Assembly: GCA_050697455.1 (NCBI GenBank)
Contig: JBOGZU010000011.1
Coordinates: forward strand, 2,278 to 66,277
Reading direction: 5' to 3'
Source of the DNA: Gaiellaceae bacterium
GTDB taxonomy: Bacteria; Actinomycetota; Thermoleophilia; Gaiellales; Gaiellaceae
Length of the DNA: 64,000 nucleotides
Positions 2,613 through 53,088 of this stretch are shown here, in pieces (the first letter of the stretch is position 1; every line of letters begins with the position of its first letter). Both the position numbers and the translations under genes were made by a program. Under the pieces are notes generated by a model that was given only the letters and a program-made list of their open reading frames with translations, was not told the origin of the DNA and did not search any database.

Positions 2613-4030
2613 CGAACGGCGCGCCCGCCACCCGCAGCACCGTGCGCTGGCTCGACAAGCGCAGCGCGAGCGCGCCGTTCCTGAAGAAGGCGCTGCGCTA
2701 CCTCTTCCCCGATCACTGGTCGTTCCTCCTCGGCGAGATCGCGCTCTACGCCTTCGGCGTCCTCGTCCTGACCGGGATCTACCTGACGTTCTTCTTCGTC
2801 GACTCGACGAAGGAGGTCGTCTACCACGGTCCGTACGGCCCGCTCTACGGCCAGAAGATGAGCGAGGCGTACCAGTCGGTCGTGCACCTCTCCCTGCAGG
2901 TGCGCGCCGGCCTGCTCATCCGCCAGACGCACCACTGGGCGGCGAACATCTTCGTCGCGGCGATCGTCCTCCACCTCTTCCGCGTCTTCTTCACGGGCGC
3001 CTACAGGAAGCCGCGCGAGCTGACCTACTGGATCGGCGTGACGATTCTGATGCTCACGCTGCTCGAGGCGTACATGGGCTATTCGCTCGTCGACGACCTG
3101 ATGTCGGGGATGGGCCTCGTGATCGGCTATTCGGTCGGGCTGGCGCTGCCGTTCGTCGGCGAGAACCTCATGAACTGGCTGTTCGGCGGGATCTTTCCGG
3201 GCAGCTCGCAGCTCTGGCCGCGGATGTACATCGCGCACGTCCTGATCTTCCCGATCCTGATCGGGCTGCTGCTCGGCGCGCACCTCGTGCTCGTCGCACT
3301 GCGGCATCACACGCAGTTCAAGCGGAAGCGGAAGCAGACGGAGAAGACGATCGTCGGCGTGCCGCTCTGGCCCGGGCAGACGCCGCGGTCGGTGGGGCTC
3401 GCGCTCGGGACGACCGGCTTTCTCTTCCTGCTCGGCGGCCTGGTCGAGATCAACCCGATCTGGCTGTGGGGGCCGTACCACACGTACTCCTCGACCAATG
3501 GCGCGCAGCCGGACTGGTACCTCGGCTGGCTGATCGGCGGCCTACGGCTCATGCCGAGCTTCGACTTCACGATCGGGAGCTACACGGTCGTCCCGAACCC
3601 GTTCTGGGGCGGCGCCGCGTTCCCGCTCGTCGTCTTCGGCTTCCTCTATTTCTGGCCGTGGATCGAGCGGAAGTTCACCGGGGATCAGGCGTTCCACAAC
3701 CTGCTCGACCGGCCGCGCGACGCGCCCGCGCGGACGGGGATCGGGGTCGGGATGATCACCTGGGTCGTGCTCGTCTTCCTCGCCGGCGGCGCCGATCGCG
3801 TCTTCGTCCTGTTCGGGATCTCCTACATCGCGCAGATCTGGGTGTACCGCGTGATCGTCTTCGTGCTCCCGGTCGCCTTCGGGGTCGCGACGTGGTGGCT
3901 GTGCAGGGCGCTGCAGGCGAGCGAGCGAGTCGTCGCGGCGCGCCACGAGGCGGAGGCCGAGGCCCGGCTGGCGCGCATCAAGCGCGGCGACGAGCCGCCG
4001 GCGCCCGCGGATCCCGGCACGGTGGCGTGA
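2609..4030 (+). CDS. qcrB: cytochrome b subunit of menaquinol-cytochrome c reductase
   Basis: The GTG overlaps the qcrA stop (GTGA). The sequence ...FLKKALRYLFPDHWSFLLGEIALYAFGVLVLTGIYLTFFF...HHWAANIFVAAIVLHLFRVFFTGAYRKPRELTYW... is a typical cytochrome b N-terminal domain. It is a polytopic membrane protein. Confidence 0.9.
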   Translation: MTNGAPATRSTVRWLDKRSASAPFLKKALRYLFPDHWSFLLGEIALYAFGVLVLTGIYLTFFFVDSTKEVVYHGPYGPLYGQKMSEAYQSVVHLSLQVRAGLLIRQTHHWAANIFVAAIVLHLFRVFFTGAYRKPRELTYWIGVTILMLTLLEAYMGYSLVDDLMSGMGLVIGYSVGLALPFVGENLMNWLFGGIFPGSSQLWPRMYIAHVLIFPILIGLLLGAHLVLVALRHHTQFKRKRKQTEKTIVGVPLWPGQTPRSVGLALGTTGFLFLLGGLVEINPIWLWGPYHTYSSTNGAQPDWYLGWLIGGLRLMPSFDFTIGSYTVVPNPFWGGAAFPLVVFGFLYFWPWIERKFTGDQAFHNLLDRPRDAPARTGIGVGMITWVVLVFLAGGADRVFVLFGISYIAQIWVYRVIVFVLPVAFGVATWWLCRALQASERVVAARHEAEAEARLARIKRGDEPPAPADPGTVA

Positions 4031-4660: not shown

Positions 4661-7357
<2,697 letters not shown>

Positions 7358-7397: not shown

Positions 7398-8318
7398 TCA
7401 GCTACCGGCCGGCGTGGTCGTCACTTTCGTTCCCTGCTTTGCGATCCGCCCGCGCTGAGGCTCGACGACGTACTTCGGGTCGCGCGCCGACTGGAAGCCG
7501 GCCTTGAACACCGACCAGCGGAGGCAGACCTCGCCGGCGCAGACGAGCGCGCCGCCGAGGACGGCCGCGCCACGGCTCCGCTTTCCGCGGGTCGCCAGGA
7601 GCGCAGCGCCCGCCGTCGCCATCCCCTTCGCCGCCCACGCGTACTTGCCGGCCTCGCCCTGCTTGTAGACCTCGCCGACCTTTCCGAGCCGCAACTCCAT
7701 TGTCTGCATCAATGCGCCCTCGGCGAGCACGCCCGCGATCGCGAGCCGCCGCGCCGGCCCGGCCTCGCGCGGGTGGACGACCATGCACGCCGCCGCCCCG
7801 GCGCTCGCCGCAGCGCTCGCGCCGAACAGCCACGGCAGCTCGCGCCGCGCCTCGTGCCAGACCGGGATCGCCGTGTCGGCGATGAGCACGCCGGTGTACG
7901 TCGCGAGGGGCGGCCCCGCGACCGTCGCGACCGCCTCGGCGAGGAACTTGATCGGCTTCAGGCGCCCGGTGAGCGCGAGGAGTGCCGCGGTGCTCGAGGC
8001 GCCGCCGCTCACGAGCAGGATCCAGGAGCCGACGTTCATCGGCGACGTCACCTTGACGACGCGGAACATGTGGTGGAAGCGCTCCGGCCGGCCGAGGTCG
8101 GAGATGAGGAAGCCCGGCGAGACGATGTCCGCCAGCGCGCCGATGTAGAGCGAGCGGCGCGCGAGCTTCTCGTGGCCGGTCAGCTTCGCGCTCGACGAAA
8201 GGACGGACGAGGCGCCCGCGAGCCCGCCGCTGAAGAGGTAGGCCGGGATCTCCCACGTCCAGGTCGGCTCCTTGACGATCGGCCGGCCGTAGTAGGAGCG
8301 GCTGCCGTTCTCGCTCAT
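7398..8318 (-). CDS. NrfD/PsrC-type polytopic membrane anchor subunit of the formate dehydrogenase
   Basis: An internal ATG (MSENGSRSYYGRPIVKEPTWTWEIPAYLFSGGLAGAS...) overlaps the stop of the FeS subunit (ATGA). It has about 8 hydrophobic helices. The upstream part of ORF 7398..9083 is an off-frame artefact. Confidence 0.85.
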   Translation of the reverse strand: MSENGSRSYYGRPIVKEPTWTWEIPAYLFSGGLAGASSVLSSSAKLTGHEKLARRSLYIGALADIVSPGFLISDLGRPERFHHMFRVVKVTSPMNVGSWILLVSGGASSTAALLALTGRLKPIKFLAEAVATVAGPPLATYTGVLIADTAIPVWHEARRELPWLFGASAAASAGAAACMVVHPREAGPARRLAIAGVLAEGALMQTMELRLGKVGEVYKQGEAGKYAWAAKGMATAGAALLATRGKRSRGAAVLGGALVCAGEVCLRWSVFKAGFQSARDPKYVVEPQRGRIAKQGTKVTTTPAGS

Positions 8319-9178
8319 CGCCGGCCTCCGGCGAGCGTCAACGCGGTGACTCCCGCGAGCAGCGCACCCGCTGCGGCGAGCATGTTCGTCCACATCTCCG
8401 GCAGGTGCTTGGTCGAGACGACCGGGTCGGGCGGCAGCCCGTAGACCTCCGGATCGTCGAGCAGGAGGAAGAAGGCGCCAAAGCCGCCGACGCCGTCCTC
8501 GGGGTCGCGGCCGTACAGCTGCGCGCCGTTCCACCCGTCGCCGGAGAGCTTCGCCAGCCGCTCGTCGGCCTTCTCCCGCAGCTCGTCGAGCGGGCCGAAC
8601 TGGATCGACTTCGTGGGGCACGCCTTCGCGCACGCCGGCTCGTGGCCGCCCTTGAGACGGTCGTAGCAGAGCGTGCACTTCCAGACGCGGCCGTCTTCCT
8701 TCGCGAACGCCGGCAGATCCGGCGCCGGAGCGAGATGCCGCTTGTCGAGCACGCCGAACGGGCACGCCGGCACGCAGTAGCCGCAGCCGTTGCAGATGTC
8801 CTGCTGGACGACCACCGTGCCGAACTCGGTGCGGAACAGGGCGCCGGTCGGGCAGACGTCGAGGCACGCCGCGTGGGTGCAGTGCTTGCAGACGTCCGAC
8901 TCCATCAGCCAACGGAGCCCGGTCTCGCCGTCGCCGTTCGTGGCGAGCGGCTTCTCCTGCTCGACGAAGGCGACGTGCCGCCACGTGTTCGCGTTCAGCT
9001 CGGACGTGTTGTCGTAGGACTCGCCCGTCCAGGTGAGGCCGTCTTCCGGGATCAGGTTCCACTCCTTGCACGCCACCTCGCACGCCTTGCAGCCGATGCA
9101 GACGGACGTGTCGGTGAAGAAGCCGACGCGCTCCTCTTGCTCGCTCCCGTACGTCGCGATCCCGTCGGCGGCGCTCAT
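8315..9178 (-). CDS. 4Fe-4S ferredoxin-type (FdnH/HybA-like) electron-transfer subunit with C-terminal TM helix
   Basis: It starts MSAADGIATYGSEQEERVGFFTDTSVCIGCKACEVACKEWN. It carries four Cys clusters (CIGCKAC..C, CKHCTHAAC..C, CNGCGYCVPAC, CTLCYDR...CAKAC). The start overlaps the alpha-subunit stop. Confidence 0.9.
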   Translation of the reverse strand: MSAADGIATYGSEQEERVGFFTDTSVCIGCKACEVACKEWNLIPEDGLTWTGESYDNTSELNANTWRHVAFVEQEKPLATNGDGETGLRWLMESDVCKHCTHAACLDVCPTGALFRTEFGTVVVQQDICNGCGYCVPACPFGVLDKRHLAPAPDLPAFAKEDGRVWKCTLCYDRLKGGHEPACAKACPTKSIQFGPLDELREKADERLAKLSGDGWNGAQLYGRDPEDGVGGFGAFFLLLDDPEVYGLPPDPVVSTKHLPEMWTNMLAAAGALLAGVTALTLAGGRR

Positions 9179-12100
9179 GTCTTCCGCACCTCCTCGGGCT
9201 CGACGCGCGGCTCCTGCTCTCGCCGCGAATGCGCCTGCTCGCGCAGCTCCGCGACGAAGCGCGTCAGCTCGGGCCCGCGCGGCCGGCGGCCGGGCCTGAC
9301 CCCGCAGGTGAACGCCTTGACCTCCTGGATGTGGACGTTCGGGTCGAGCGCCATGTGCGCGAGGTCGTTCGCCGAGTCGCCGGTGACGATCCCGCGCTGG
9401 CCCCAGTGGTACGGCAGCCCGATCTGGTGGATGGCACGGCCGTCCATCTGGACCGGCCGCATCCGCTCTGTCACCATCACCCGCGCCTCGATCGCCGAGC
9501 GGGACGTGTAGATCGTCGCCCAGCCGCCGTGCTCGAGCCCGACCTCGCGCGCGAGATCGGGGTGCACCTCGCAGAACATCTCGGGCTGCAGCTCGGCGAG
9601 GTAGGGGACGGAGCGGGTCATGCCGCCGGCCGTGTGATGCTCGGTCAGCCGGTAGGTCGTGACGACGTAGGGATAGACCTCGGCGCCCGGCTCGTCGGCG
9701 ACCGGGTTGTACGGATCCTCCGCCATGTCCTTGTTCTGCTGGCGGCGCGGGTTCGCGCGCTGGGAGTAGAGGGGGTTGCCGAACGGCGACTCGTGCGGCT
9801 CGTAGTGCGTCGGCATCGGCCCGTCCTCGAGCCCCTGCGGGACGTAGAGCCAGGAGCGCCCGTCGGCCTGCATGACGAACGGGTGGTCGCCGGCGATGGC
9901 GTCCTCGGCCTCGGCGTCGTCGGGCGGCACGTAATGCGGGCTCTTGTCCTCCTCGAAGTCGGGGACGTCGGGGCCGGTCCACTTCCCCTCGGCGCCGTCC
10001 CACCAGACGTAGCGCTTCCGTTCCGACCACGGGTTCCCGTCGGGATCTGCCGAGGCGCGGTTGTAGAGAAGCCGCCGGTTCGCCGGCCACGCCCACGCCC
10101 ACTCGGGCGCGACGTAGCTGTCCTGCTCCCAGTGCGGCTTCTTCCGCGCGGTCTGGTTGATGCCGTCCTTGAAGCAGCCGGAGTAGATCCAGCAGCCGCA
10201 GAGCGTCGAGCCGTCGTCCTTCAGCTCCGGATAGCCCGTGAGGAACTTGCCGGTCGCGATCTCCTTGCCGTTGACCTCCTGCAGGATCGCCTCGGCGTCG
10301 GGCTCGCGGATCGCGGAGTGCGTCGGGTACTCCCAGCGCAGCGACTTGATCAAGAGGTCGCGCTCGTCCTCCGAGCCCTCGAGCTTCTGCTTGATCAGCC
10401 GGCCGAGGTGGAAGTAGAACCAGAGGTCCGAGCGGCAGTCCTCCTTCGGCTCGACCGCCTGCCAGTGCCACTGCAGCAGGCGCTGCGTGTTCGTGAAGGA
10501 GCCCTCCTTCTCGGTGTGCGTCGCGGCGGGGAGGAAGAAGACCTCGGTCGGGATCTCCTCCGTCTTCAGCTCGCCGGACTCGATCTCCGGCGCGTCGCGC
10601 CAGAACGACGCGGACTCGATCTCGACGATGTCCCGCACGACGAGCCAGTCGAGCTTTGCAAGGCCGAGCCGGTTCGCCTTGCCGTTCGCGTTCCCGACCG
10701 CCGGGTTCTCGCCGGCGATGATGTAGCCCTTCACCTTCCCCGCGAGCATCTGCTGGACGGTGAAGTAGGCAGAGTTGTCGTCGTCGATGCGCGGCAGCGA
10801 CTCGAAGAGGAAGTCGTTGTCCGCGTTGGCGTTCTCGCCGAAGTAGGCCTTCATCAGCGAGACGAAGTAGGCGCGGAAATGGCCCCACCAGCCCGTCGGC
10901 GACGTGTTCGCCGCGATGTACGCGGCGAGGTCGCCGTAGCGCTCCGTGTGCGGCATCGGCAGGTAGCCGGGGAGGATGTTGTAGAGCGTCGGGATGTCCG
11001 TCGAGCCCTGGATCGACGCGTGCCCGCGCAGCGCCATGATCCCGCCGCCGGGCCGCCCGATGTTTCCGAGCAGCTGCTGGATGACTGCCGCGGCTCGGAT
11101 CGTCTGGACTCCGGTCGTGTGCTGCGTCCAGCCGACCGCGTAACAGAACGCGCTCGTCCGCTCTCGGCCAGAGTTGGCGACGAGCGTCTCGCAGACCTCG
11201 AGGAAGTCCGCGACCGAGCAGCCGCACGTCTCGGCGACGAGCTCGGGCGTGTAGCGCTGGTAGTGCTTCTTGAGGAGCTGGAGGACGCAGCGCGGGTCCT
11301 GCAGCTCGGGGTCCTCCGACGGCGGCTCGCCGTGCTGAAGACCGCCGCCGTGGCCACCGTGACCCGAGCCCTCGCCTTTCGTGGGCGAGAAGCCGTCCTC
11401 GCGCTGGCCCGCCGCGCCGTGCGTCTCCATCCCCTCGTACATCCACTGCTCGACGTCGTACTCGCCCTCCTCGGGATCCCAGCCCGAGAAGAGGCCGTCG
11501 AGATCCTCGGTGTCCGCGAACTCCGGCCGGATGATCACCGGCGCGTTCGTGTACTTCTCGACGTACTCCTTGAAGTAGAGGTCGTTCTGGAGGATGTAGT
11601 TGGCGATGCCGCCGAGGAAGGCGATGTCGCTACCGGCGCGGATCCCGACGTGCTTCGTCGCCATCGCGCTCGTCCGCGTGAAGCGCGGGTCGACATGGAT
11701 GACCTTCGCGCCGCGCTCCCTGGCCTCCATCACCCACTGGAATCCCACCGGGTGGTTCTCGGCCATGTTCGAGCCCATGATCACGATGCAGTCCGAGTTC
11801 TGCAGGTCCTGCTGGAACGTCGTCGCGCCGCCTCGTCCGAACGAGGTGCCCAGACCGGGCACCGTGGAGCTGTGTCATATGCGGGCCTGGTTCTCGACCT
11901 GGACGATCCCGAGGCCCGTCATCAGCTTCTTGATGAGGTAGTTCTCCTCGTTGTCCAGCGTTGCGCCGCCGAGGTTGCCGATCGCCATCGTCCGGTTGGA
12001 GGGATTGCCGTCCTCGGTCTTCCACTCCCACGTCTCGGCACGGGTCTTGACGATTCGGTCGACGATCATCTCCATCGCGTCGTCGAGCGAGAGCTCCTCC

Positions 12101-12444
12101 CAGGCGCTGCCGTACGGGCGCCGGTACTTGACCTTGTACTCGCGGAGCGGGCTCTGGACGAGGCTCTTCGAGGCCTGCCCCTTCGGGCATAGCCGGCCGC
12201 GGGAGATCGGCGACGCAGGGTCGCCCTCGATGTGCGTGACCTCTCCGCCGGCGACGTAGACGAGCTGGCCGCAGCCGACCGCGCAATACGGGCAGACGGA
12301 GTGGACGACGTGCTCGGCCTCGTCGATCCGCGCGGTGAGGTTCTTGGAGCGGGGCGACTGCGCCGCCTTCCCGAGCCCGAGCAGGTCTCCCTCGCGCAGC
12401 TGCCTGAGCGCGGGCCAAGACTCGAGCAACCTCGCGAACTCCAT
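9175..12444 (-). CDS. formate dehydrogenase alpha subunit (molybdopterin oxidoreductase), selenocysteine-containing; UGA-Sec at 11875..11877
   Basis: ORFs 11875..12444 and 9175..11862 are in one frame. Read-through gives ...LGIVQVENQARI-[TGA]-HSSTVPGLGTSFGRGGATTF, the conserved FDH Sec/Cys active-site motif. The N-terminal CPYCAVGCG FeS motif is present. A SECIS-like hairpin lies 11 nt after the UGA. Confidence 0.9.
11845..11863 (-). promoter_or_regulatory. SECIS upper stem-loop for the FDH UGA codon
   Basis: The RNA GGUGCCC-GGUCU-GGGCACC forms a 7-bp perfect stem. It starts 11 nt 3' of the UGA. The apical GGUCUG string is the same as in the E. coli fdhF minimal SECIS (GGUUGCAGGUCUGCACC, from memory). 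Confidence 0.7.
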
Positions 12445-30800: not shown

Positions 30801-31537
30801 GGCGGACCGCGGCCGCGTCGCTCGTCGCGGCGGCGGTCTTCGCGCCGCACGCCTCGGCGGGCACGGGGCTCAGCGTCAGCCCGCTGCGGCTGGCGCTCGT
30901 TGGGAGATCGAGCGCGACCATCACCGTGCGGAATCCGAGCGGACGGCCACTGCTCGTCGCGGCCGGCCGGGCCGGCTTTGCGCGCACGCTGCGAGGCCGG
31001 CCGCGGGTCCGTGCCGTGCGTGGCGCCGCCGACTGGCTGCGGGTCCGTCCGCGGCGCCTTCGGCTCGCGCCGCACGCGACCGGGACGCTTCGGGTCACGG
31101 CGCTGACGCCCTCGACCGCGGCGGCCGGCGACCATCCCGCGCTCGTCCTGCTCGGAACCCGCCAGCCCGGCGACCGGCGCGTCCGGGTTCTCCTGCGCGT
31201 CGGGGTCGTCGTCCTCGTCCATGTCACCGGCCCTGTGGTGCGGCGGCTCGAGCCACAGGCGCTCACGGTCGAACGGCGGGGCAGGAAGCGACTCTTCGAG
31301 TTGCGGCTCGCCAACCGCGGCAACGTCCTGGAAAGACTCGGCGGCGCCCGGCTGCGGCTCGTTCTGCTGCGCGGCGGCACCGCTATCGCGAGGCTGCGGC
31401 CTCGCCGGCTGGAGCTGCTGCCGCACAGCGCGGGTATCGCCGAGTTCGTCTATCGCGGCCGCCTGCGCGGCAGGATCGACGCCCGCGCCGAGTTGGCTTC
31501 ACCGGGGCGCTCGCGCTCTTATCGGCTCAGGCTGTGA
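30797..31537 (+). CDS. secreted PapD-/DUF916-like beta-sandwich (chaperone-like) protein, very Arg-rich
   Basis: GTGA overlap with the LTD gene. The signal is VRRTAAASLVAAAVFAPHASA. GLSVSPLRLALVGRSSATITVRNPSGRPLLV resembles the first strands of pilus-chaperone/DUF916 folds. Confidence 0.55.
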   Translation: MRRTAAASLVAAAVFAPHASAGTGLSVSPLRLALVGRSSATITVRNPSGRPLLVAAGRAGFARTLRGRPRVRAVRGAADWLRVRPRRLRLAPHATGTLRVTALTPSTAAAGDHPALVLLGTRQPGDRRVRVLLRVGVVVLVHVTGPVVRRLEPQALTVERRGRKRLFELRLANRGNVLERLGGARLRLVLLRGGTAIARLRPRRLELLPHSAGIAEFVYRGRLRGRIDARAELASPGRSRSYRLRL

Positions 31538-32162
31538 CGCGGCGGATGAACTCCGCCTCCGGCACCGAGCCATCCCAACGCGGCTCGCCGTCGACCACGA
31601 TCCGAGGCACCGCGTAGACGCCCATCTCCTGCGAGAGCTGCGGGAACTCGTTCGCCTCGATTGCAGTCGCAGTCACCCGCTCGGAGGCGAGAGCGCAACG
31701 GAACGCCAGCAGAACGGCCGGCGGGCAATGCGGTCAGGTCGGCGTGACGAAGACGTCGAGCGAGAGGTCGCGCTCGAGCTCCTCGAGCACCGCGACCGAC
31801 TCCGGCTGCAGCGACGACTCGGCCCGTCCCGCCTCCACGATCGCGCCGACAAGCGAGCCCATCTCGTAGCCCCAGGGCAGCCCGTCGTAGCGGACGCCGG
31901 CGTCGCGGCCCGCGGGCCGGACGGAGATGGACGGGAAGCGGGGCACGTCCGCCGGCTCCTCCTCGACGCGGTGCGTCACGCTCTCGCCGAGCTCGGCCAG
32001 CGCTTCCACGAGCCGCAGCGCCTCGGCGCCGAAGTCGACGTCGCCCGCTCCCGCCAGCGGCGTCTCCTCCGGCCCCAACGCGACGACGAGCTCGACGGGC
32101 CGCTCGAGCTCGGCGAACCACGCGCGCACCTTCTCGGTCTCCTCCGGGCGAAAGATCCCCAT
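31527..32162 (-). CDS. glutaredoxin-like/PDO-type thioredoxin-fold protein, candidate selenoprotein (UGA at 31734..31736; motif T-U-P-H-C)
   Basis: ORF 31734..32162 ends ...LSLDVFVTPT then TGA. The same frame continues for 68 codons with no stop: PHCPPAVLLAFRCALASERVTATAIEANEFPQLSQEMGVYAVPRIVVDGEPRWDGSVPEAEFIRRVTA. This matches the CPYC unit of glutaredoxin-like PDO proteins. Confidence 0.65.
31704..31723 (-). promoter_or_regulatory. possible SECIS-like hairpin downstream of the UGA at 31734..31736
   Basis: The RNA CGCCGGC-CGUUCU-GCUGGCG forms 7 bp including one G-U pair. It starts 10 nt after the UGA and has GU in the loop. It has not been folded computationally. Confidence 0.35.
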
Positions 32163-32169
32163 GGCCGCG

Positions 32170-33582
32170 TTATGCCCGGGCGTGGAGGTCTTCGATCGCG
32201 CGCTCGAGCTCGTCGAGCCGCGCGGCGCCGAACTCGCGCACCGTCCCGTGGGCGTCGACGGCGACGTTCGTCGGGACGCCGCGTACGCCGAGCTCGCCGG
32301 CGAGCTTGCCCTCGGGGTCGAGCAGGATCGGCCCCTTGATCCCCCACATTTCGCAGAAACGCTCGACCTCGGGACGGGGCTCCGTCCCCTCCCAGATGTC
32401 GACGAGAATCACCTCGGGGCCCGACCGGGCCCCTTCGCGAATGCGCAGCTCCTCGAGGAACGGCGCCTCCGCGTTGCACGGCCCTCACCAGGAGGCGAAG
32501 AAGTTGAGGATGTACTTCTTCTCGGCCCAGTCGTCGTTCGTGCGGCGCTCGCCCGTCCAGTAGTCCTCGAGCGAGAACTCCGGCAGGCGCTTCCCGATCC
32601 ACGGGCTCGGCTCCTCGACCACCGGCACGGGAGGGCGCGCCGCGAGGAGGTCCTCGACGATCGACAAAGTCTGGCTGCCGGCGTTGGCGACGAGGACGCG
32701 GCCGTCGTGCCGGTCGACCACGACGCCGCCAGGCCCGTTGCCGACCGGGATCTGCGTCCACTCGGTGCGGTCGGCCACGCCGATCACCGTGAGCGTCCCG
32801 GCGCCGCGGTTCGTCACGTAGATCCGATCGTGAGCGGGCGCGACGGTGAGGCCGACGGGCGCCTGGCCGGTGCGGATCTCCTCCACGACCTCGTGCGAGT
32901 CGAGGTCGACGCGCGAGACCGTGCCGGCGATCGAGTTGACGATGAACGCCTCGCCGCGCTCGGGAAGGATCCCGATCGCGCAGGTGCCGGTGCCGAGCTC
33001 GAGGCGTCCGATCTCCTCGAAGGACTCTGCGTCGAAGAGGTTCGCGGAGGCAGCGACGAAGTTGACGCAGATAACGAGGTTGCGCGTCGGGTCGACGCCG
33101 ATCGCGCCGGCGCCCGGCTCCGCGTCGACCGTCGCCACCGTTTCGAGCGAGTCGAGGTCGATGACGCTCATCGTCGAGCCGAGCGAGTTGCCGACGTAGA
33201 GGCGGCGGAACTCCGGGACGTGCGTGAGCCCGGACGGATAACCGCCGACGGGCAACGTGGTCTCCACCTCGAGCGTGGCCGAGTCGATGACCGTCACGGA
33301 ATCGGAGTGGGCGTCCGCCGTGAAGACGCGGCCGGTCTGCTCGTCGAGCCCGATGTCGATCGGTTCTGCTCCGGTGGAGATCTCCGCGATCACCCCGTGC
33401 TCCTCGAGGTCGACGACCGAGACGAAGTCGCTGCGGGAGCAGGCGACGAAGGCCCGCCGCCGCTCGACGTCGACGGCGATTCCCTCGGGGTCGAGGCCGA
33501 CCGGGATCTCGGCCACCTGCCGCCACGGCGTTCGCGCGTCGATACGGCACGCCGCGCCGACCGGGAAGGTCGCCTCCTCCAT
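32170..33582 (-). CDS. YVTN-type beta-propeller fused to a TlpA/ResA-like redoxin domain, candidate selenoprotein (UGA at 32485..32487; motif W-U-G-P-C)
   Basis: ORFs 32485..33582 and 32170..32412 share one frame with no other stop between them. Read-through gives ...KKYILNFFASW-[TGA]-GPCNAEAPFLEEL...GVRGVPTNVAVDAHGTV. The N-terminal 365 aa carry repeated ...V.VID... propeller repeats. Confidence 0.7.
32459..32475 (-). promoter_or_regulatory. weak candidate SECIS-like hairpin downstream of the UGA at 32485..32487
   Basis: The RNA AACGCG-GAGG-CGCCGUU forms a stem with one bulged C, 9 nt after the UGA. Alternative foldings exist (GAGG/CCUC). It needs computational folding. Confidence 0.25.
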
Positions 33583-40170: not shown

Positions 40171-41325
40171 CTAGATCTCGTCGAGCGCCTCGAGCAGACG
40201 GTCGACCTCGGCCGGCGTGTTGTAGTGGACGAAGCCCGCGCGCACGGCGCCGTTCGGCTGGAGCCCGAGCCTCTCCATCCCCTCGACCGCGTAGTAGTCG
40301 CCGTCCCAGACCGCGATGCCCCGTTCCGCCAGGCGCTCCGCGGTCGTGCGCGGCGCGACTCCGTCGAGCCGGAAGGCGAAGGTCGGGACGCGACCGTCCA
40401 TCGTTCCCCGGCCGTAGAGCGTGCAGCGCCCGGGCAGCCCGTCGAGGAACCGCTGGCCCAGGGCGCGCTCGTGCGCCTGGATCGCCTCCCAGCCGAGCTC
40501 CTCGAGGTACTCCACCGCGGCGACGAAGCCGGCGAGCAGCTCGTGCGCGAGCGTCCCCGTCTCGAAGCGCCGCCCGACCGGCTCGTCCGCCGCCGGGCGC
40601 ACCTTGTACGGCTGCCACGCGCGCAGCAGCTCCTCCCGGCCGAAGGCGACGCCGAGATGCGGGCCGAAGAACTTGTACGGCGAGCAGAGCAGCACGTCGA
40701 CGCCGAGCGCCGCGACGTCGATCGGCCCGTGCGGCGCGTAGTGGACGGCGTCCGCCCAGGCGAGCGCGCCCGCGGCGTGGGCGAGCTCGACGATGCGTGC
40801 GGCGTCGGTCATCGTCCCGAACGCGTTCGAGGCGAGCGGGAAGGCGACGACGCGCGTGCGGTCGGTCAGGCCCACCTCGAGGTCGCCGAGGTCGAGGCTC
40901 GTGCCGTCGCCGATCTCGACGAAGCCGACGCGGAGGTCGAGATCGCGTGCGAGCTCGAGCCACGGCGCCACGTTGGCGTCGTGGTCGAGGCGTGTGACGA
41001 GGATCTCGTCGCCCGCCGCGAGCGTTCGTCCCAGCGCGCGGCTGAGCGCGAAGTTGAGCGTCGTCATGTTGGCGCCGAACGCGATCTCCTCCGGCCGCGC
41101 GCCGAGGAATCGCGCCGCCGTTTCGTGCGCCCCTTCCACGAGCTCGTCGCTGTGGCGGCTCGCCTCGAACGCGCCGCCGAGGTTCGCGTTCGAGTCGCGG
41201 AGATAGCCGGCGACGGCGTCGATCACCGACTGCGGAACCTGTGTCCCGCCAGGCCCGTCGAAGAACGCGACTCCGGAACGGAGCGCCGGGAAGCGAGCGC
41301 GGATCGCCTCGACGTCGAAGTTCAT
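40171..41325 (-). CDS. class V aminotransferase-fold PLP enzyme (cysteine desulfurase-like)
   Basis: It starts MNFDVEAIRARFPAL... It contains VVAFPLASNAFG and LLCSPYKFFGPHLG (PLP-Lys region). Confidence 0.85.
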   Translation of the reverse strand: MNFDVEAIRARFPALRSGVAFFDGPGGTQVPQSVIDAVAGYLRDSNANLGGAFEASRHSDELVEGAHETAARFLGARPEEIAFGANMTTLNFALSRALGRTLAAGDEILVTRLDHDANVAPWLELARDLDLRVGFVEIGDGTSLDLGDLEVGLTDRTRVVAFPLASNAFGTMTDAARIVELAHAAGALAWADAVHYAPHGPIDVAALGVDVLLCSPYKFFGPHLGVAFGREELLRAWQPYKVRPAADEPVGRRFETGTLAHELLAGFVAAVEYLEELGWEAIQAHERALGQRFLDGLPGRCTLYGRGTMDGRVPTFAFRLDGVAPRTTAERLAERGIAVWDGDYYAVEGMERLGLQPNGAVRAGFVHYNTPAEVDRLLEALDEI

Positions 41326-41615
41326 CCCTGCTCGAGCGGCGCCATCGTCAGGCCCTGCTCCCGCAGTTGCTCCCAGTACAGCTCCGCTTGCTCGCGCAGT
41401 CCCGACCAGACGATCGCCTGCCCCGAGGAATGGATCCGGTCGGCGAGCCGCAGGCCGGCGTCGTAGGAGAGGCCGGGAATGACGCTCGAGAGCGCGAAGG
41501 CGACGCCCTGGAACGTGTTGTGGTCGTCGTTGAGGACGATCACGTGCCACGGCCGCCCGAGCCCCGTTCCCTCGCCGCGGCCGAGTCGCTCGCGTGGCGG
41601 CGTCAGCGTGCTCAC
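41322..41615 (-). CDS. clpS: ATP-dependent Clp protease adaptor ClpS
   Basis: It contains ...WHVIVLNDDHNTFQGVAFALSSVIPGLSYDAGLRLADRIHSSGQAIVW... The GTG overlaps the osmC stop. Confidence 0.85.
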   Translation of the reverse strand: MSTLTPPRERLGRGEGTGLGRPWHVIVLNDDHNTFQGVAFALSSVIPGLSYDAGLRLADRIHSSGQAIVWSGLREQAELYWEQLREQGLTMAPLEQG

Positions 41616-42031
41616 GCGCCGGCCGGACGGCCGTTCACCGTCCAGCTGTACCGCGGCTTCTCGTTGAGCGAGGCGCCGACGAAGCAGTCCCGCTCGGCCT
41701 TCGCGAGCAGCTCGACGAGTTCGTCGGCCCCCGGCTCCGACTCGATCTCCACTGCGAGCTCGACGTCGCTCTCGACGACCGCGTAGCGGCCGTCGCTCTC
41801 CCGCTTCGTGACGAGCGCGCGCGTCGAGCCGGAGGCTCTTGCGATCTCGAGGCCGGCACGCTCGGCGTGGTAGCCGAGGCTCGCGAGCGAGCAGCGGATC
41901 AGAGCTGCGAGGAGCAGGTGCTCGGGCGTCCACTCCGCCGGCAGGGCAAGAGCGCTGCCGTTCTCCTCGCGCAGCTCGCCGGACGGAGCGAGGTCGACGG
42001 CGAAGCGGAGCTCACGAGCGCGGTTGGCCAT
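41612..42031 (-). CDS. OsmC/Ohr family protein
   Basis: 139 aa. It contains ...TPEHLLLAALIRCSLASL... and ...AERDCFVGASL (the two conserved Cys). Confidence 0.85.
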   Translation of the reverse strand: MANRARELRFAVDLAPSGELREENGSALALPAEWTPEHLLLAALIRCSLASLGYHAERAGLEIARASGSTRALVTKRESDGRYAVVESDVELAVEIESEPGADELVELLAKAERDCFVGASLNEKPRYSWTVNGRPAGA

Positions 42032-42290
42032 GGCCGCATCGTCTCAGATGCCGTCCCCGATGCCGTCCGAGGGGGCTCGTACGCTGCGGTCCGTGCGACG
42101 CCTGCGCACACTCACCGAGGCCGAGTGCTATATCCGCTGCTACGGCGGCTGGGAGCCGACGGTGACCCTCGTCAAGCTCGAGCCGCGGCGTCCTCACTAC
42201 GACCTGGCAGTCACTGGTGAGGACCTGCGGCGCGAGTTCGAAGCCCGCATCGACGCGCGGCCGGACGAGGCCGAAGCCGAAGCTGCTTGA
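42024..42290 (+). CDS. conserved hypothetical protein
   Basis: High GC3. It contains ...RRLRTLTEAECYIRCYGGWEPTVTLVKLEP... The start is uncertain (several Met codons). Confidence 0.45.
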   Translation: MAMAASSQMPSPMPSEGARTLRSVRRLRTLTEAECYIRCYGGWEPTVTLVKLEPRRPHYDLAVTGEDLRREFEARIDARPDEAEAEAA

Positions 42291-51372: not shown

Positions 51373-52067
51373 GGAACGTCGCCGTTCGACGAGCCCATCC
51401 GTTCGATCACGACCTGGGGGATCCGCGCGGTGGGGCTGAGGCGCAGGCACATGCGGACGACCTCGGCGCAATCCTCCGGCCGGATCATCTCCTCGTGCTC
51501 GAGCCCCGACCACTGCGCCATCGGCGTGTCGACGAAGCCGGGGCAGATGGCGATCGAGCGGACGCCGTCCGCGTCGAGCTCGGCGTTGAGTGAGCGGGTG
51601 AGCGAGATGACTGCGGCCTTCGTCGCGCCGTATGTCGCGAGCCCGGGAGTCGGCAGCGTGCCGGCGATCGAGGCGAGATTGACGATCCAGCCACGCGATT
51701 CACGGAGGAGCGGGATGGCCGCCTGCGTAACGAGGAAGAGGCCGCGCAGGTTGATGTCGAGCTGGAGGTCGAGCTTCTTCAGATCGAGATCCTCGACCGT
51801 GCCGCCGATCCCGACGCCGGCGGAGTTGACGAGCACGTCGATTCGGCCGAACCGCTCGCGGTGCTCTGCGACCGCGCGTGCGCAGTCGTCCGGATCCGCG
51901 ACATTCGCGGCGATTGCAGCCGCCCCGAGCTCGGCCGCCGCGGCTTCGATCTTCTCCTGCTGGCGGGAGACGAGCGTCAGGTCGTAGCCCTCCTCGCGCA
52001 GGAGCCGCGCGATCGCGAGCCCGATTCCCGAGGAGCCGCCGGTGACGAGTGCCGCGCGATCTGCCAT
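51369..52067 (-). CDS. SDR family oxidoreductase
   Basis: An internal ATG gives MADRAALVTGGSSGIGLAIA (TGxxxGIG motif). NSAG and YGATKAA are also present. Confidence 0.85.
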   Translation of the reverse strand: MADRAALVTGGSSGIGLAIARLLREEGYDLTLVSRQQEKIEAAAAELGAAAIAANVADPDDCARAVAEHRERFGRIDVLVNSAGVGIGGTVEDLDLKKLDLQLDINLRGLFLVTQAAIPLLRESRGWIVNLASIAGTLPTPGLATYGATKAAVISLTRSLNAELDADGVRSIAICPGFVDTPMAQWSGLEHEEMIRPEDCAEVVRMCLRLSPTARIPQVVIERMGSSNGDVP

Positions 52068-52089
52068 TCCGCCGCCTACAGTAAACGGC

Positions 52090-53088
52090 GTGAAGACCGC
52101 AGGACTGACGAGCCTCAGCGTCGGCGGCGGCTGCGCTGCGAAGTACTCGGCGGCCCGGCTCGAGGAGTTGCTCAAGGGATTCGTGCCGGCGGAGGCGGAG
52201 GATCTCCTTGTCGGCCTCGACCCGGCCGACGACGCCGCGGTCTACAGGCTCGACGAGGAACGCGCGCTTGTCTTCACCGTCGACTTCTTCCCGCCGCTCG
52301 TCGACGATCCCGCGCTGTTCGGCCGCATCGCGGCGACGAACGCGCTGAACGACGTCTTCGCGATGGGAGGGACGCCGCTCCTCGCGCTCTCAATCGCGGC
52401 TTTCCCGGAGGAACTCCCGACCGAGGTGGTCGCCGCGGTCTTCGCCGGCGCCGAGGAGCAGGTGCGCGCCGCGGGCGCGATTCTCGCGGGCGGGCACACG
52501 ATTCGCGACGCCGAGCCGAAATACGGGCTCGCGGTCGTCGGCACCGTCCATCCGGACGCAGTCTGGGTCAAGAGCGGCGCGCGGCCCGGCGACGCCGTTT
52601 TCCTCACGAAGCCGCTCGGCACCGGCCTCGTTCTCGCCGCGAAGGGCGACATCGGGGAGGCGGCGCGGTGGATGACGACGCTGAACGACGCCGCGGCCGA
52701 CGTCCTGCGCGCCTTCTCGCCGCACGCCGTGACCGACGTCACGGGCTTCGGCCTTTTTGGGCACGCGCACGAGACCGCGGAGCGGAGTGGCGTGCAGCTC
52801 GTTCTCGAGTCGGCGTCGTTCCCCGCGCTCGCGGGTGCGCTCGAGGCGGCTCGAGCGGGGACTCGAACCGGCGGCGATCCGCGCAATCGTGAGTTCGCGC
52901 CGGTCGAAGAGGACGGCGTGCCGGAGGAGCTGCTCGCGCTCGGCTACGACGCCCAGACGGCGGGTGGACTGCTCGTGACGCTGCCGGCCGAGAAGTCGCT
53001 CTCCCTCGAGGCGGAGTTCGCGCGCTGCGATCTCTTCCTCGTGCGGGTGGGGTCGGTGGAGGAGGGAGGCGGCGTTGTCGTCCGTTAG
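52090..53088 (+). CDS. selD: selenide, water dikinase (selenophosphate synthetase), Cys-type
   Basis: The GTG start gives VKTAGLTSLSVGGGCAAKYSAARLEELL (E. coli: [20 protein letters not shown]). It contains DDAAVYRL...FTVDFFPPLVDDPALFGRIAATNALNDVFAMGGTPL and an AIR-synthase-like C-terminal domain. Confidence 0.9.
   Translation: MKTAGLTSLSVGGGCAAKYSAARLEELLKGFVPAEAEDLLVGLDPADDAAVYRLDEERALVFTVDFFPPLVDDPALFGRIAATNALNDVFAMGGTPLLALSIAAFPEELPTEVVAAVFAGAEEQVRAAGAILAGGHTIRDAEPKYGLAVVGTVHPDAVWVKSGARPGDAVFLTKPLGTGLVLAAKGDIGEAARWMTTLNDAAADVLRAFSPHAVTDVTGFGLFGHAHETAERSGVQLVLESASFPALAGALEAARAGTRTGGDPRNREFAPVEEDGVPEELLALGYDAQTAGGLLVTLPAEKSLSLEAEFARCDLFLVRVGSVEEGGGVVVR

Follow-up and report, generated by a model that had tools for sequence, protein, structure and literature searches.

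Gene and reading frame

The locus described here lies on the minus strand of a 64,000-nucleotide (nt) stretch of contig JBOGZU010000011.1 from a Gaiellaceae bacterium (assembly GCA_050697455.1, contig positions 2,278 to 66,277). This whole stretch is called the window, and coordinates are positions of this 64-kb window unless another locus is named; those of all features are collected in Table 1. The locus encodes a YVTN-type beta-propeller followed by a redoxin domain, and a TGA lies in frame within the second of these. It is very probably a single redoxin-propeller gene that the databases cut into two fragments and that belongs to a widespread family of soil Actinomycetota.

The open reading frame (ORF) listing splits the locus on the minus strand into 32485..33582, with 365 amino acids (aa), and 32170..32412, with 80 aa, both in the same frame. 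The 365-aa ORF ends with ...KKYILNFFASW followed by TGA, and the 72 nt separating the two ORFs (32413..32484) are free of stops. Translation of 33582..32170 in one frame gave the read-through junction ...KKYILNFFASW-[TGA]-GPCNAEAPFLEELR, where the TGA takes the position of the first cysteine (Cys) of a W-C-G-P-C motif. The G+C content of third codon positions (GC3) was 0.93 in the codons preceding the TGA and 0.91 in those past it. An earlier prediction made from the letters of the window (the original prediction) had described the division into two ORFs at the TGA, the single frame with its stop-free interval of 72 nt and the persistence of G/C-rich third positions, and each of these was reproduced.

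Domain architecture and predicted structure

Profile searches were performed with the read-through protein in which Cys had been set at the TGA. Redoxin PF08534 matched residues 330-450 with 58.3 bits (cut-off 26.6) and its match spans the TGA; AhpC-TSA PF00578 matched residues 329-450 with 52 bits (cut-off 26). The N-terminal part was recognized by YNCE PF21783 (63 bits, cut-off 27.1) and by the YVTN repeat model TIGR02276 (134 bits, cut-off 27.85). No model of NCBIfam release 20 covers the full-length protein, and two NCBIfam selenoprotein models remained below their cut-offs (NF041054, WAxxUGC_long, 28 bits against 300; NF045694, TsoB, 15 bits against 805). In ResA (PDB 4NMU, E 1.8e-14) the residue aligned with the TGA is the nucleophilic Cys that opens the CxxC motif, and the redoxin motif, written W-U-G-P-C-N-A-E-A-P with U for selenocysteine (Sec), fits the ResA pattern CxxCxxExP. 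Among 80 aligned family sequences U366-G-P-C369-N-A-E372-A-P374 and G-V-P437 were invariant; judged by its position, P437 would be the usual cis-proline of the thioredoxin fold.

An AlphaFold2 model, computed from 43 aligned sequences, covers the 365-aa N-terminal part and reached a mean predicted local distance difference test (pLDDT) score of 90 and a predicted template modelling (pTM) score of 0.84. In this model residues 20-311 form 28 strands arranged as seven four-stranded blades, while residues 312-336 lack regular secondary structure. The best Foldseek matches were the archaeal surface-layer (S-layer) YVTN propeller 1L0Q (E 2e-22), Lp49 (3BWS), Escherichia coli YncE (3VGZ, E 1e-19) and the beta subunit of hydrazine synthase (5C2V_B). 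Neither a signal peptide nor a membrane anchor was found in the protein. In 52 homologues the N-terminus is acidic and free of hydrophobic segments, from which we infer that the protein is cytoplasmic, unlike its membrane-anchored Cys relatives; a hydrophobic N-terminal segment is present in the standalone Cys relatives P0207 and P0212. The original prediction of a protein of ~470 aa, with a multi-blade YVTN propeller that has no signal peptide and a redoxin of the TlpA/ResA type carrying the TGA on its nucleophilic Cys, thus described the architecture correctly.

Several further cysteines are conserved in the 80 sequences, namely C48 (80/80), C172 (79/80), C201 (80/80) and C410 (67/80). Cys12 lies in the family motif G-G-P-S-C-x-V-D and was found in 63 of 80, the remainder being mostly alignment gaps. 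The conservation of Cys12, Cys48, Cys172 and Cys201 (nt ~33549-33547, 33441-33439, 33069-33067 and 32982-32980, respectively) is unusual for a cytoplasmic YVTN propeller.

Conservation of the in-frame TGA

A word-indexed search of 5.8 billion proteins returned ~52 homologues with 41-54% identity and ~76% query coverage, labeled 'YVTN family beta-propeller protein', 'YncE family protein' or 'hypothetical'. All of them end exactly with ...N[FV]FASW, and therefore gene callers had stopped at the same TGA, the truncation that had been expected of standard gene calling. In the first four homologue loci of which the DNA was read, GPCNAEAP and the whole of a redoxin domain come after the TGA in the same frame. 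When species-representative genomes were scanned, more than 500 candidate places emerged, of which the best 80, matching residues ~1-467 across the TGA, were taken and combined with three further loci and the window to a set of 84 loci. The codon at the Sec column was TGA in 84/84 loci and never TGC or TGT, followed in each case by in-frame GPCNAEAP. Because the same TGA occurs in the same context in all orthologous loci, it is not a product of chance, and a frameshift or sequencing error as its source was rejected, given the identical codon in 84 independent assemblies.

The 84 loci belong to Gaiellaceae, Acidimicrobiia, Streptomyces, Dactylosporangium, Actinoallomurus, Pseudonocardiaceae, Streptosporangiaceae, Solirubrobacterales and Rokubacteria. 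Orthologues from Gaiellaceae share 62-89% identity with the window protein, which was itself also found in the metagenome-assembled genome (MAG) GCA_974121255.1. Cultured carriers include S. hygroscopicus NBRC 13472, S. kebangsaanensis SUK12, S. triticisoli, Dactylosporangium salmoneum JCM 3272 and Actinoallomurus soli. In several close relatives from long-read MAGs (L042, L070 and the proteins P0001, P0054 and P0327) frameshifts within the propeller have given rise to garbled database proteins; indels from assembly seem more likely here than true pseudogenes.

With the TGA as a true stop, a propeller protein of 365 aa would be encoded here, together with either a separately translated TlpA-like fragment of ~80-100 aa or the decaying relic of a former fusion. 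All annotation agrees with such a division, giving a YncE/YVTN protein that ends with ASW and 'TlpA family protein disulfide reductase' fragments of ~90 aa, and TGA is the ordinary stop of many genes in the window. However, in each of the 83 complete loci the frame past the TGA runs on for 100-268 codons, without frameshift or stop, and mean identity to the window protein was 62% downstream and 61% upstream of the TGA, with divergence down to 42% identity. In 20 close relatives nucleotide differences at the three codon positions amounted to 161/153/570 downstream and 234/140/510 upstream, with most of them at the third position on either side, and synonymous and non-synonymous codon changes to 400/321 downstream and 398/318 upstream. 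The matching synonymous excess and identity show that purifying selection is equal on both sides of the TGA, so that truncation of the gene with decay of its tail is excluded; the decay of the downstream frame for which the original prediction had asked to look in relatives was thus absent, and a relic would not have persisted in two phyla. In addition, the TGA divides one thioredoxin fold, with strand beta-1 and the Trp before it and the remainder after it, which makes two independent polypeptides implausible. No start codon is conserved in the downstream piece, and the called fragments begin at differing internal codons. We consider termination at this codon extremely improbable, and a read-through product is preferred.

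Pairing of the TGA with cysteine and probable decoding as selenocysteine

The nearest proteins with Cys at this position are small TlpA-like proteins, some of which have an N-terminal hydrophobic anchor. They were found at 31-41% identity and read NFFASWCGPCNAEAP (P0206, P0207 and P0212) or NFFASWCGPC (P0209). Thus, in the comparison of homologues at the TGA column that had been suggested earlier, the orthologous loci kept TGA, and Cys was found in the standalone TlpA-like proteins and in ResA. Most selenoprotein families have Cys forms. A Cys-form orthologue of the fusion was found neither among the 84 loci, nor in the search of 5.8 billion proteins, nor in a search with the C-terminal domain, and a full-length Cys form would be expected to be visible in the protein search because it would out-score the truncated calls. 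A profile search for fusions of the Cys form among 1.84 billion representatives was too strongly dominated by giant multi-propeller YVTN proteins to be informative, and its few matches of suitable length were truncated or frameshifted members of the family. The use of Sec in the propeller-redoxin family is apparently obligate.

The UGA might also be decoded as another residue, either through read-through by a near-cognate Trp-tRNA or through reassignment of UGA, with W-W-G-P-C in the product. One database protein, P0121, carries Trp at the Sec column (FFASWWGPC), and a search over the 64 kb of the window showed no gene for tRNA-Sec, selA or selB and no tRNA of any kind. P0121 derives from a metagenome contig of 1.5 kb, and its Trp is probably, and most simply, the result of gene calling under an alternative code with TGA as Trp. 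UGA ends many well-supported genes of the window, so that the code is not reassigned, and the column holds the catalytic Cys in all Cys homologues, where Trp would kill the redox site.

Against a decoding as Trp also stand the genes for Sec synthesis and use. The window contains selD in its Cys form (motif GGGCAAK) and the alpha subunit of an actinobacterial-type Sec formate dehydrogenase, both of which had been named in the original prediction and were matched by profiles. The two pieces of the latter matched NF041513 at positions 3-185 and 187-1066, its TGA coincides with Sec position 186, and a classical GGUGCCC-GGUCU-GGGCACC hairpin comes after the UGA. In seven of the orthologous loci ARAGORN detected a gene for tRNA-Sec close to the propeller-redoxin gene. 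It lies 150-450 nt upstream in five Acidimicrobiia loci, 156 nt upstream on the opposite strand in a sixth locus and 1.5 kb downstream in a locus from Solirubrobacterales. Rfam RF01852 confirmed all four tRNA-Sec genes that were scanned (L005, L046, L065 and L069) with 58-67 bits (gathering score 47). In one further locus, from Streptomyces sp. NPDC048392, selA lies 2.1 kb upstream. For a single-copy gene such as that for tRNA-Sec, to recur beside the propeller-redoxin gene in at least three different arrangements is far from a chance event, and this ties the gene to Sec decoding. In Streptomyces, the Sec machinery and the propeller-redoxin gene may travel together. Decoding of the UGA as a residue other than Sec is thus judged very improbable, whereas the selenoprotein interpretation is strongly supported.

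A candidate SECIS hairpin

The original prediction had called for a hairpin near the UGA, and a stable and conserved one was found 11 nt past this codon. It comprises 15 bp in stacked segments of 6, 4 and 5 bp with the apical loop UCGA (nt 32-35, counted from the U of the UGA). The 60 nt from the UGA onwards folded with -31 kcal/mol (z = -2.6), and the same hairpin was the minimum free energy (MFE) structure in most family members. In an ungapped alignment of the 84 sequences 82% of the hairpin cells were paired, as compared to 27-59% when the 3' partners were slid by 1-3 nt. Seven of the 15 pairs had changed on both sides, with pair 28:39 occurring as UG, GC, CG, UA, AU and GU, and the covariation score was reached by none of 500 column shuffles. 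The criteria for bacterial selenocysteine insertion sequences (bSECIS) comprise 16-37 nt from the UGA to an apical loop of 3-9 nt, an upper stem of at least 4 bp and an MFE of -7.5 kcal/mol or lower; here the distance from UGA to loop is 28 nt, and loop size, stem length and stability likewise lie within these bounds. Rfam searched at the gathering threshold showed no SECIS family in the window; bacterial SECIS elements are poorly covered by Rfam. The stem-loop is likely a SelB-binding SECIS element.

The downstream candidate selenoprotein gene and other features of the window

A second candidate selenoprotein gene begins with an ATG 7 nt past the TAA of the propeller-redoxin gene. It encodes a PDO/AhpF-N-terminal-like double thioredoxin fold and was not mentioned in the original prediction. 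Its single in-frame TGA falls on a CxxC motif (VFVTPT-U-PHC-P), and ORF calls split it into 142 aa and 49 aa. Against TIGR02187 ('PDO_seleno_TRX') the read-through product reached 158 bits, below the cut-off of 185, over profile positions 3-207 of 209. Since this TGA is kept in 14 related loci of the Gaiellaceae clade, Gaiellaceae carry what is, judged by sequence, a two-selenoprotein operon.

About 8 kb from this operon, a cysteine desulfurase-like gene (40174..41634, minus strand; TIGR01976, 426 bits) adjoins an OsmC-like gene (41615..42043, minus strand). The desulfurase-like product is weakly similar to the selenocysteine lyase SclA.

Table 1. Features of the propeller-redoxin locus, of the window and of orthologous loci
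Feature	Sequence	Position	Strand	Remarks
Complete selenoprotein gene (predicted)	window	33582..32170	minus	470 codons; ATG 33582..33580; TAA 32172..32170
UGA predicted to be read as Sec, residue 366	window	32487..32485	minus	sole internal stop of the frame
N-terminal tail, residues 1-19	window	33526..33582	minus	predicted disordered, pLDDT <50 for residues 1-15; no hydrophobic signal or anchor; Cys12
Seven-bladed YVTN/YncE-type propeller, residues 20-311	window	32650..33525	minus	PF21783, TIGR02276, AlphaFold2, Foldseek
Linker, residues 312-329	window	32596..32649	minus	variable in alignment, lower pLDDT
TlpA/ResA-type redoxin domain, residues 330-470	window	32173..32595	minus	PF08534, PF00578, ResA 4NMU
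Candidate bacterial SECIS hairpin	window	32473..32436	minus	nt 15-52 from U of UGA; 11-nt spacer
Second candidate selenoprotein, PDO/AhpF-N-terminal-like double thioredoxin fold	window	32162..31527	minus	211 codons; TGA 31736..31734
selD, Cys form	window	~52042..53088	plus	TIGR00476, 326 bits, cut-off 125
Actinobacterial-type formate dehydrogenase alpha subunit	window	~12444..9175	minus	NF041513; TGA 11877..11875
NrfD-like membrane subunit	window	7401..9083		accompanies formate dehydrogenase
tRNA-Sec	L005 (Acidimicrobiia)	9758-9851		upstream of orthologue
tRNA-Sec	L046 (Acidimicrobiia)	3594-3687		upstream of orthologue
tRNA-Sec	L047 (Acidimicrobiia)	3559-3652		upstream of orthologue
tRNA-Sec	L049 (Acidimicrobiia)	3558-3651		upstream of orthologue
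tRNA-Sec	L052 (Acidimicrobiia)	3630-3723		upstream of orthologue
tRNA-Sec	L065	3751-3845		opposite strand to orthologue
tRNA-Sec	L069 (Solirubrobacterales)	6958-7049		downstream of orthologue
selA	L071 (Streptomyces sp. NPDC048392)	426-1868	minus	TIGR00474, 402 bits, cut-off 268
MFS_1 transporter neighbor	L028-L035, L040, L073, L077, L078			loci listed with this neighbor

Proposed function and weighing of the interpretation

According to the mechanism that we propose, the ribosome would read the UGA as Sec, directed by the SelB-binding stem-loop; in cultured carriers the product would contain the predicted junction …YVINFFASW-U-GPCNAEAPVLEELR. Sec366 would then attack a disulfide of the substrate, or sulfur or selenium in another oxidised form, and Cys369 would resolve the intermediate of this selenol/thiol-disulfide reductase, roles that are assigned by analogy to UxxC selenoproteins and ResA/TlpA enzymes. 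The oxidised selenenylsulfide would be re-reduced by a cytoplasmic system. By analogy to NHLRC2 and SOQ1 the propeller might be the platform on which a specific substrate docks and is offered to the active site, and cysteines 12, 48, 172 and 201 of propeller and tail may be relay or target residues. In Gaiellaceae the PDO-like selenoprotein, which would be co-transcribed, is a likely redox partner, as the operon structure suggests.

Alternatively, the protein could be a genuine selenoprotein that acts as a peroxiredoxin-like peroxidase, or one that holds a metalloid or small-molecule substrate (arsenic, selenium, organic hydroperoxide) in its propeller. The match to AhpC-TSA nearly equals that to Redoxin, and the partner gene of Gaiellaceae is a homologue of AhpF-N-terminal/PDO proteins, a family that feeds peroxiredoxins. 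In one Streptomyces locus (L003, 7761-9731) the orthologue directly follows arsC (LMWP type), arsR and ACR3, and an MFS_1 transporter of ~500 aa lies near the orthologue in 11 of the 84 loci, in Gaiellaceae as well as in actinomycete clades. The arsenic context, however, is restricted to a single neighborhood, as L003 and L004 represent the same place; it was not present in the other Streptomyces loci, the neighbors of which are unrelated. The motifs W-x-G-P-C and CxxCxxExP and the best matches are of the ResA/TlpA/Etrx type and not of the peroxiredoxin type PxxxTxxC. A peroxidase or metalloid-related function is on these grounds unlikely, and a disulfide reductase is preferred.

Several points weigh against the interpretation of the locus as a Sec-dependent propeller-redoxin reductase. 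The published bSECIS consensus wants a G at position 1 or 2 of the apical loop (PMC13188914), and the invariant G of the UCGA loop stands at position 3. Other short hairpins with a G placed according to this rule occurred in 67 of the 84 sequences, but 85% of shuffles pass too, so that the consensus is non-discriminating in this G+C-rich RNA. RNAalifold, applied to a 58-nt alignment, gave only a 3-bp mini-hairpin and not the long hairpin. The hairpin is located within a strongly conserved coding segment, and part of its conservation is due to protein constraint. To these is added the absence of selA, selB and tRNA-Sec from the window described above. With respect to function, no neighbor except the MFS transporter was conserved across clades among the 84 loci, and the functional part of the proposal rests on analogy. 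With these points taken into account, we assign a probability of roughly 0.88 to the reading that the locus is one gene encoding a 470-residue cytoplasmic protein in which UGA specifies Sec at a thioredoxin-like active site, the function of which is inferred.

Relation to known systems

A 2026 catalogue of 119 prokaryotic selenoprotein families includes UxxC selenoproteins that carry a Redoxin, AhpC-TSA or TlpA-like domain (PMC13188914, Table 1; see also PMC9312934). The protein described here shares with them the fold, the Pfam families above cut-off, Sec instead of the CxxC motif's first Cys and a hairpin past the UGA within the coding sequence. However, the catalogue lists its entries by the redoxin domain alone, whereas in the present family this domain forms the C-terminal part of a cytoplasmic protein of 470 aa for which no Cys-form orthologue was found. 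Overlap of the propeller family with the catalogued 'Redoxin family protein' (representative HEU0032618.1) is possible.

ResA, TlpA, CcmG and Etrx (4NMU, 1ST9, 1JFU, 4HQZ) are the best sequence matches for residues 327-465 and have the CxxCxxExP pattern and the G-V-P proline in common with the protein, and with the nearest Cys homologues the local sequence NFFASWCGPCNAEAP is identical. These proteins are small, membrane-anchored or secreted, contain Cys and are recharged by CcdA/DsbD. In contrast, the propeller-redoxin protein has neither anchor nor signal, carries Sec with the thioredoxin-type dipeptide G-P and possesses an added propeller. The YVTN/YncE propellers (1L0Q, 3VGZ, 3BWS; TIGR02276) correspond to residues 20-311 in repeat family, blade number and fold, but known propellers of this type lack a redox domain and are surface-layer, periplasmic or secreted proteins, and the invariant Cys48, Cys172 and Cys201 are particular to the propeller-redoxin family.

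The best precedent for the working mode is provided by NHLRC2 and SOQ1, in which a TlpA/DipZ-like thioredoxin fold is likewise joined covalently to a beta-propeller; in their structures the redox motif faces the propeller 'cup', which is thought to bind substrate (PMC6107167; bioRxiv 10.1101/2021.03.16.435614). There, the thioredoxin domain comes first, the propeller after it is of the NHL type with six blades, the motif is CCINC and an extra C-terminal domain is present, whereas the family described here has the reversed order, seven YVTN blades and WUGPC, so that the relation is one of analogy and not of membership. No NHLRC2 chain occurred among the PDB sequence matches at E<=0.001 or among the top 50 Foldseek matches.

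A propeller, YVTN or YncE selenoprotein or a UGPC motif was not described in the literature searched, a search that was not exhaustive. Together with the lack of an NCBIfam model and the truncated annotations at NCBI and JGI, this suggests that the propeller-redoxin family has not been described before. Of the novelty claimed in the original prediction, the part that concerns the fusion and the family stood, while the class of UxxC redoxin/TlpA-like selenoproteins had already been catalogued (PMC13188914). New are the fusion architecture, the cytoplasmic location, the apparently obligate use of Sec, the broad distribution and the linkage to selC and selA; UxxC chemistry and recoding were known, and no new principle is involved.

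Significance

Public annotation splits this gene in at least 80 species-level genomes, possibly in several hundred, and its recognition corrects these entries and adds a selenoprotein family whose architecture had not been catalogued. It shows the use of Sec in abundant soil lineages (Gaiellales, Acidimicrobiia and Rokubacteria) and in some Streptomyces, and the cultured carriers from Streptomyces, Dactylosporangium and Actinoallomurus make the prediction directly testable. Since no Cys-form orthologue was found and selC or selA is linked to the gene in several lineages, the family is a good system in which to ask why Sec is retained and not replaced by Cys. More speculatively, and with considerable doubt, an obligately Sec-dependent, cytoplasmic, propeller-tethered reductase without Cys-form orthologues could be among the main reasons for which many soil Actinomycetota, some Streptomyces included, retain the Sec machinery or acquire it, with the propeller and its four conserved cysteines taking part in a new intramolecular redox relay or binding an unknown specific substrate. 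If true, this would explain the presence of selC and selA beside the gene, and the protein would be a new enzyme and not just a thioredoxin variant.

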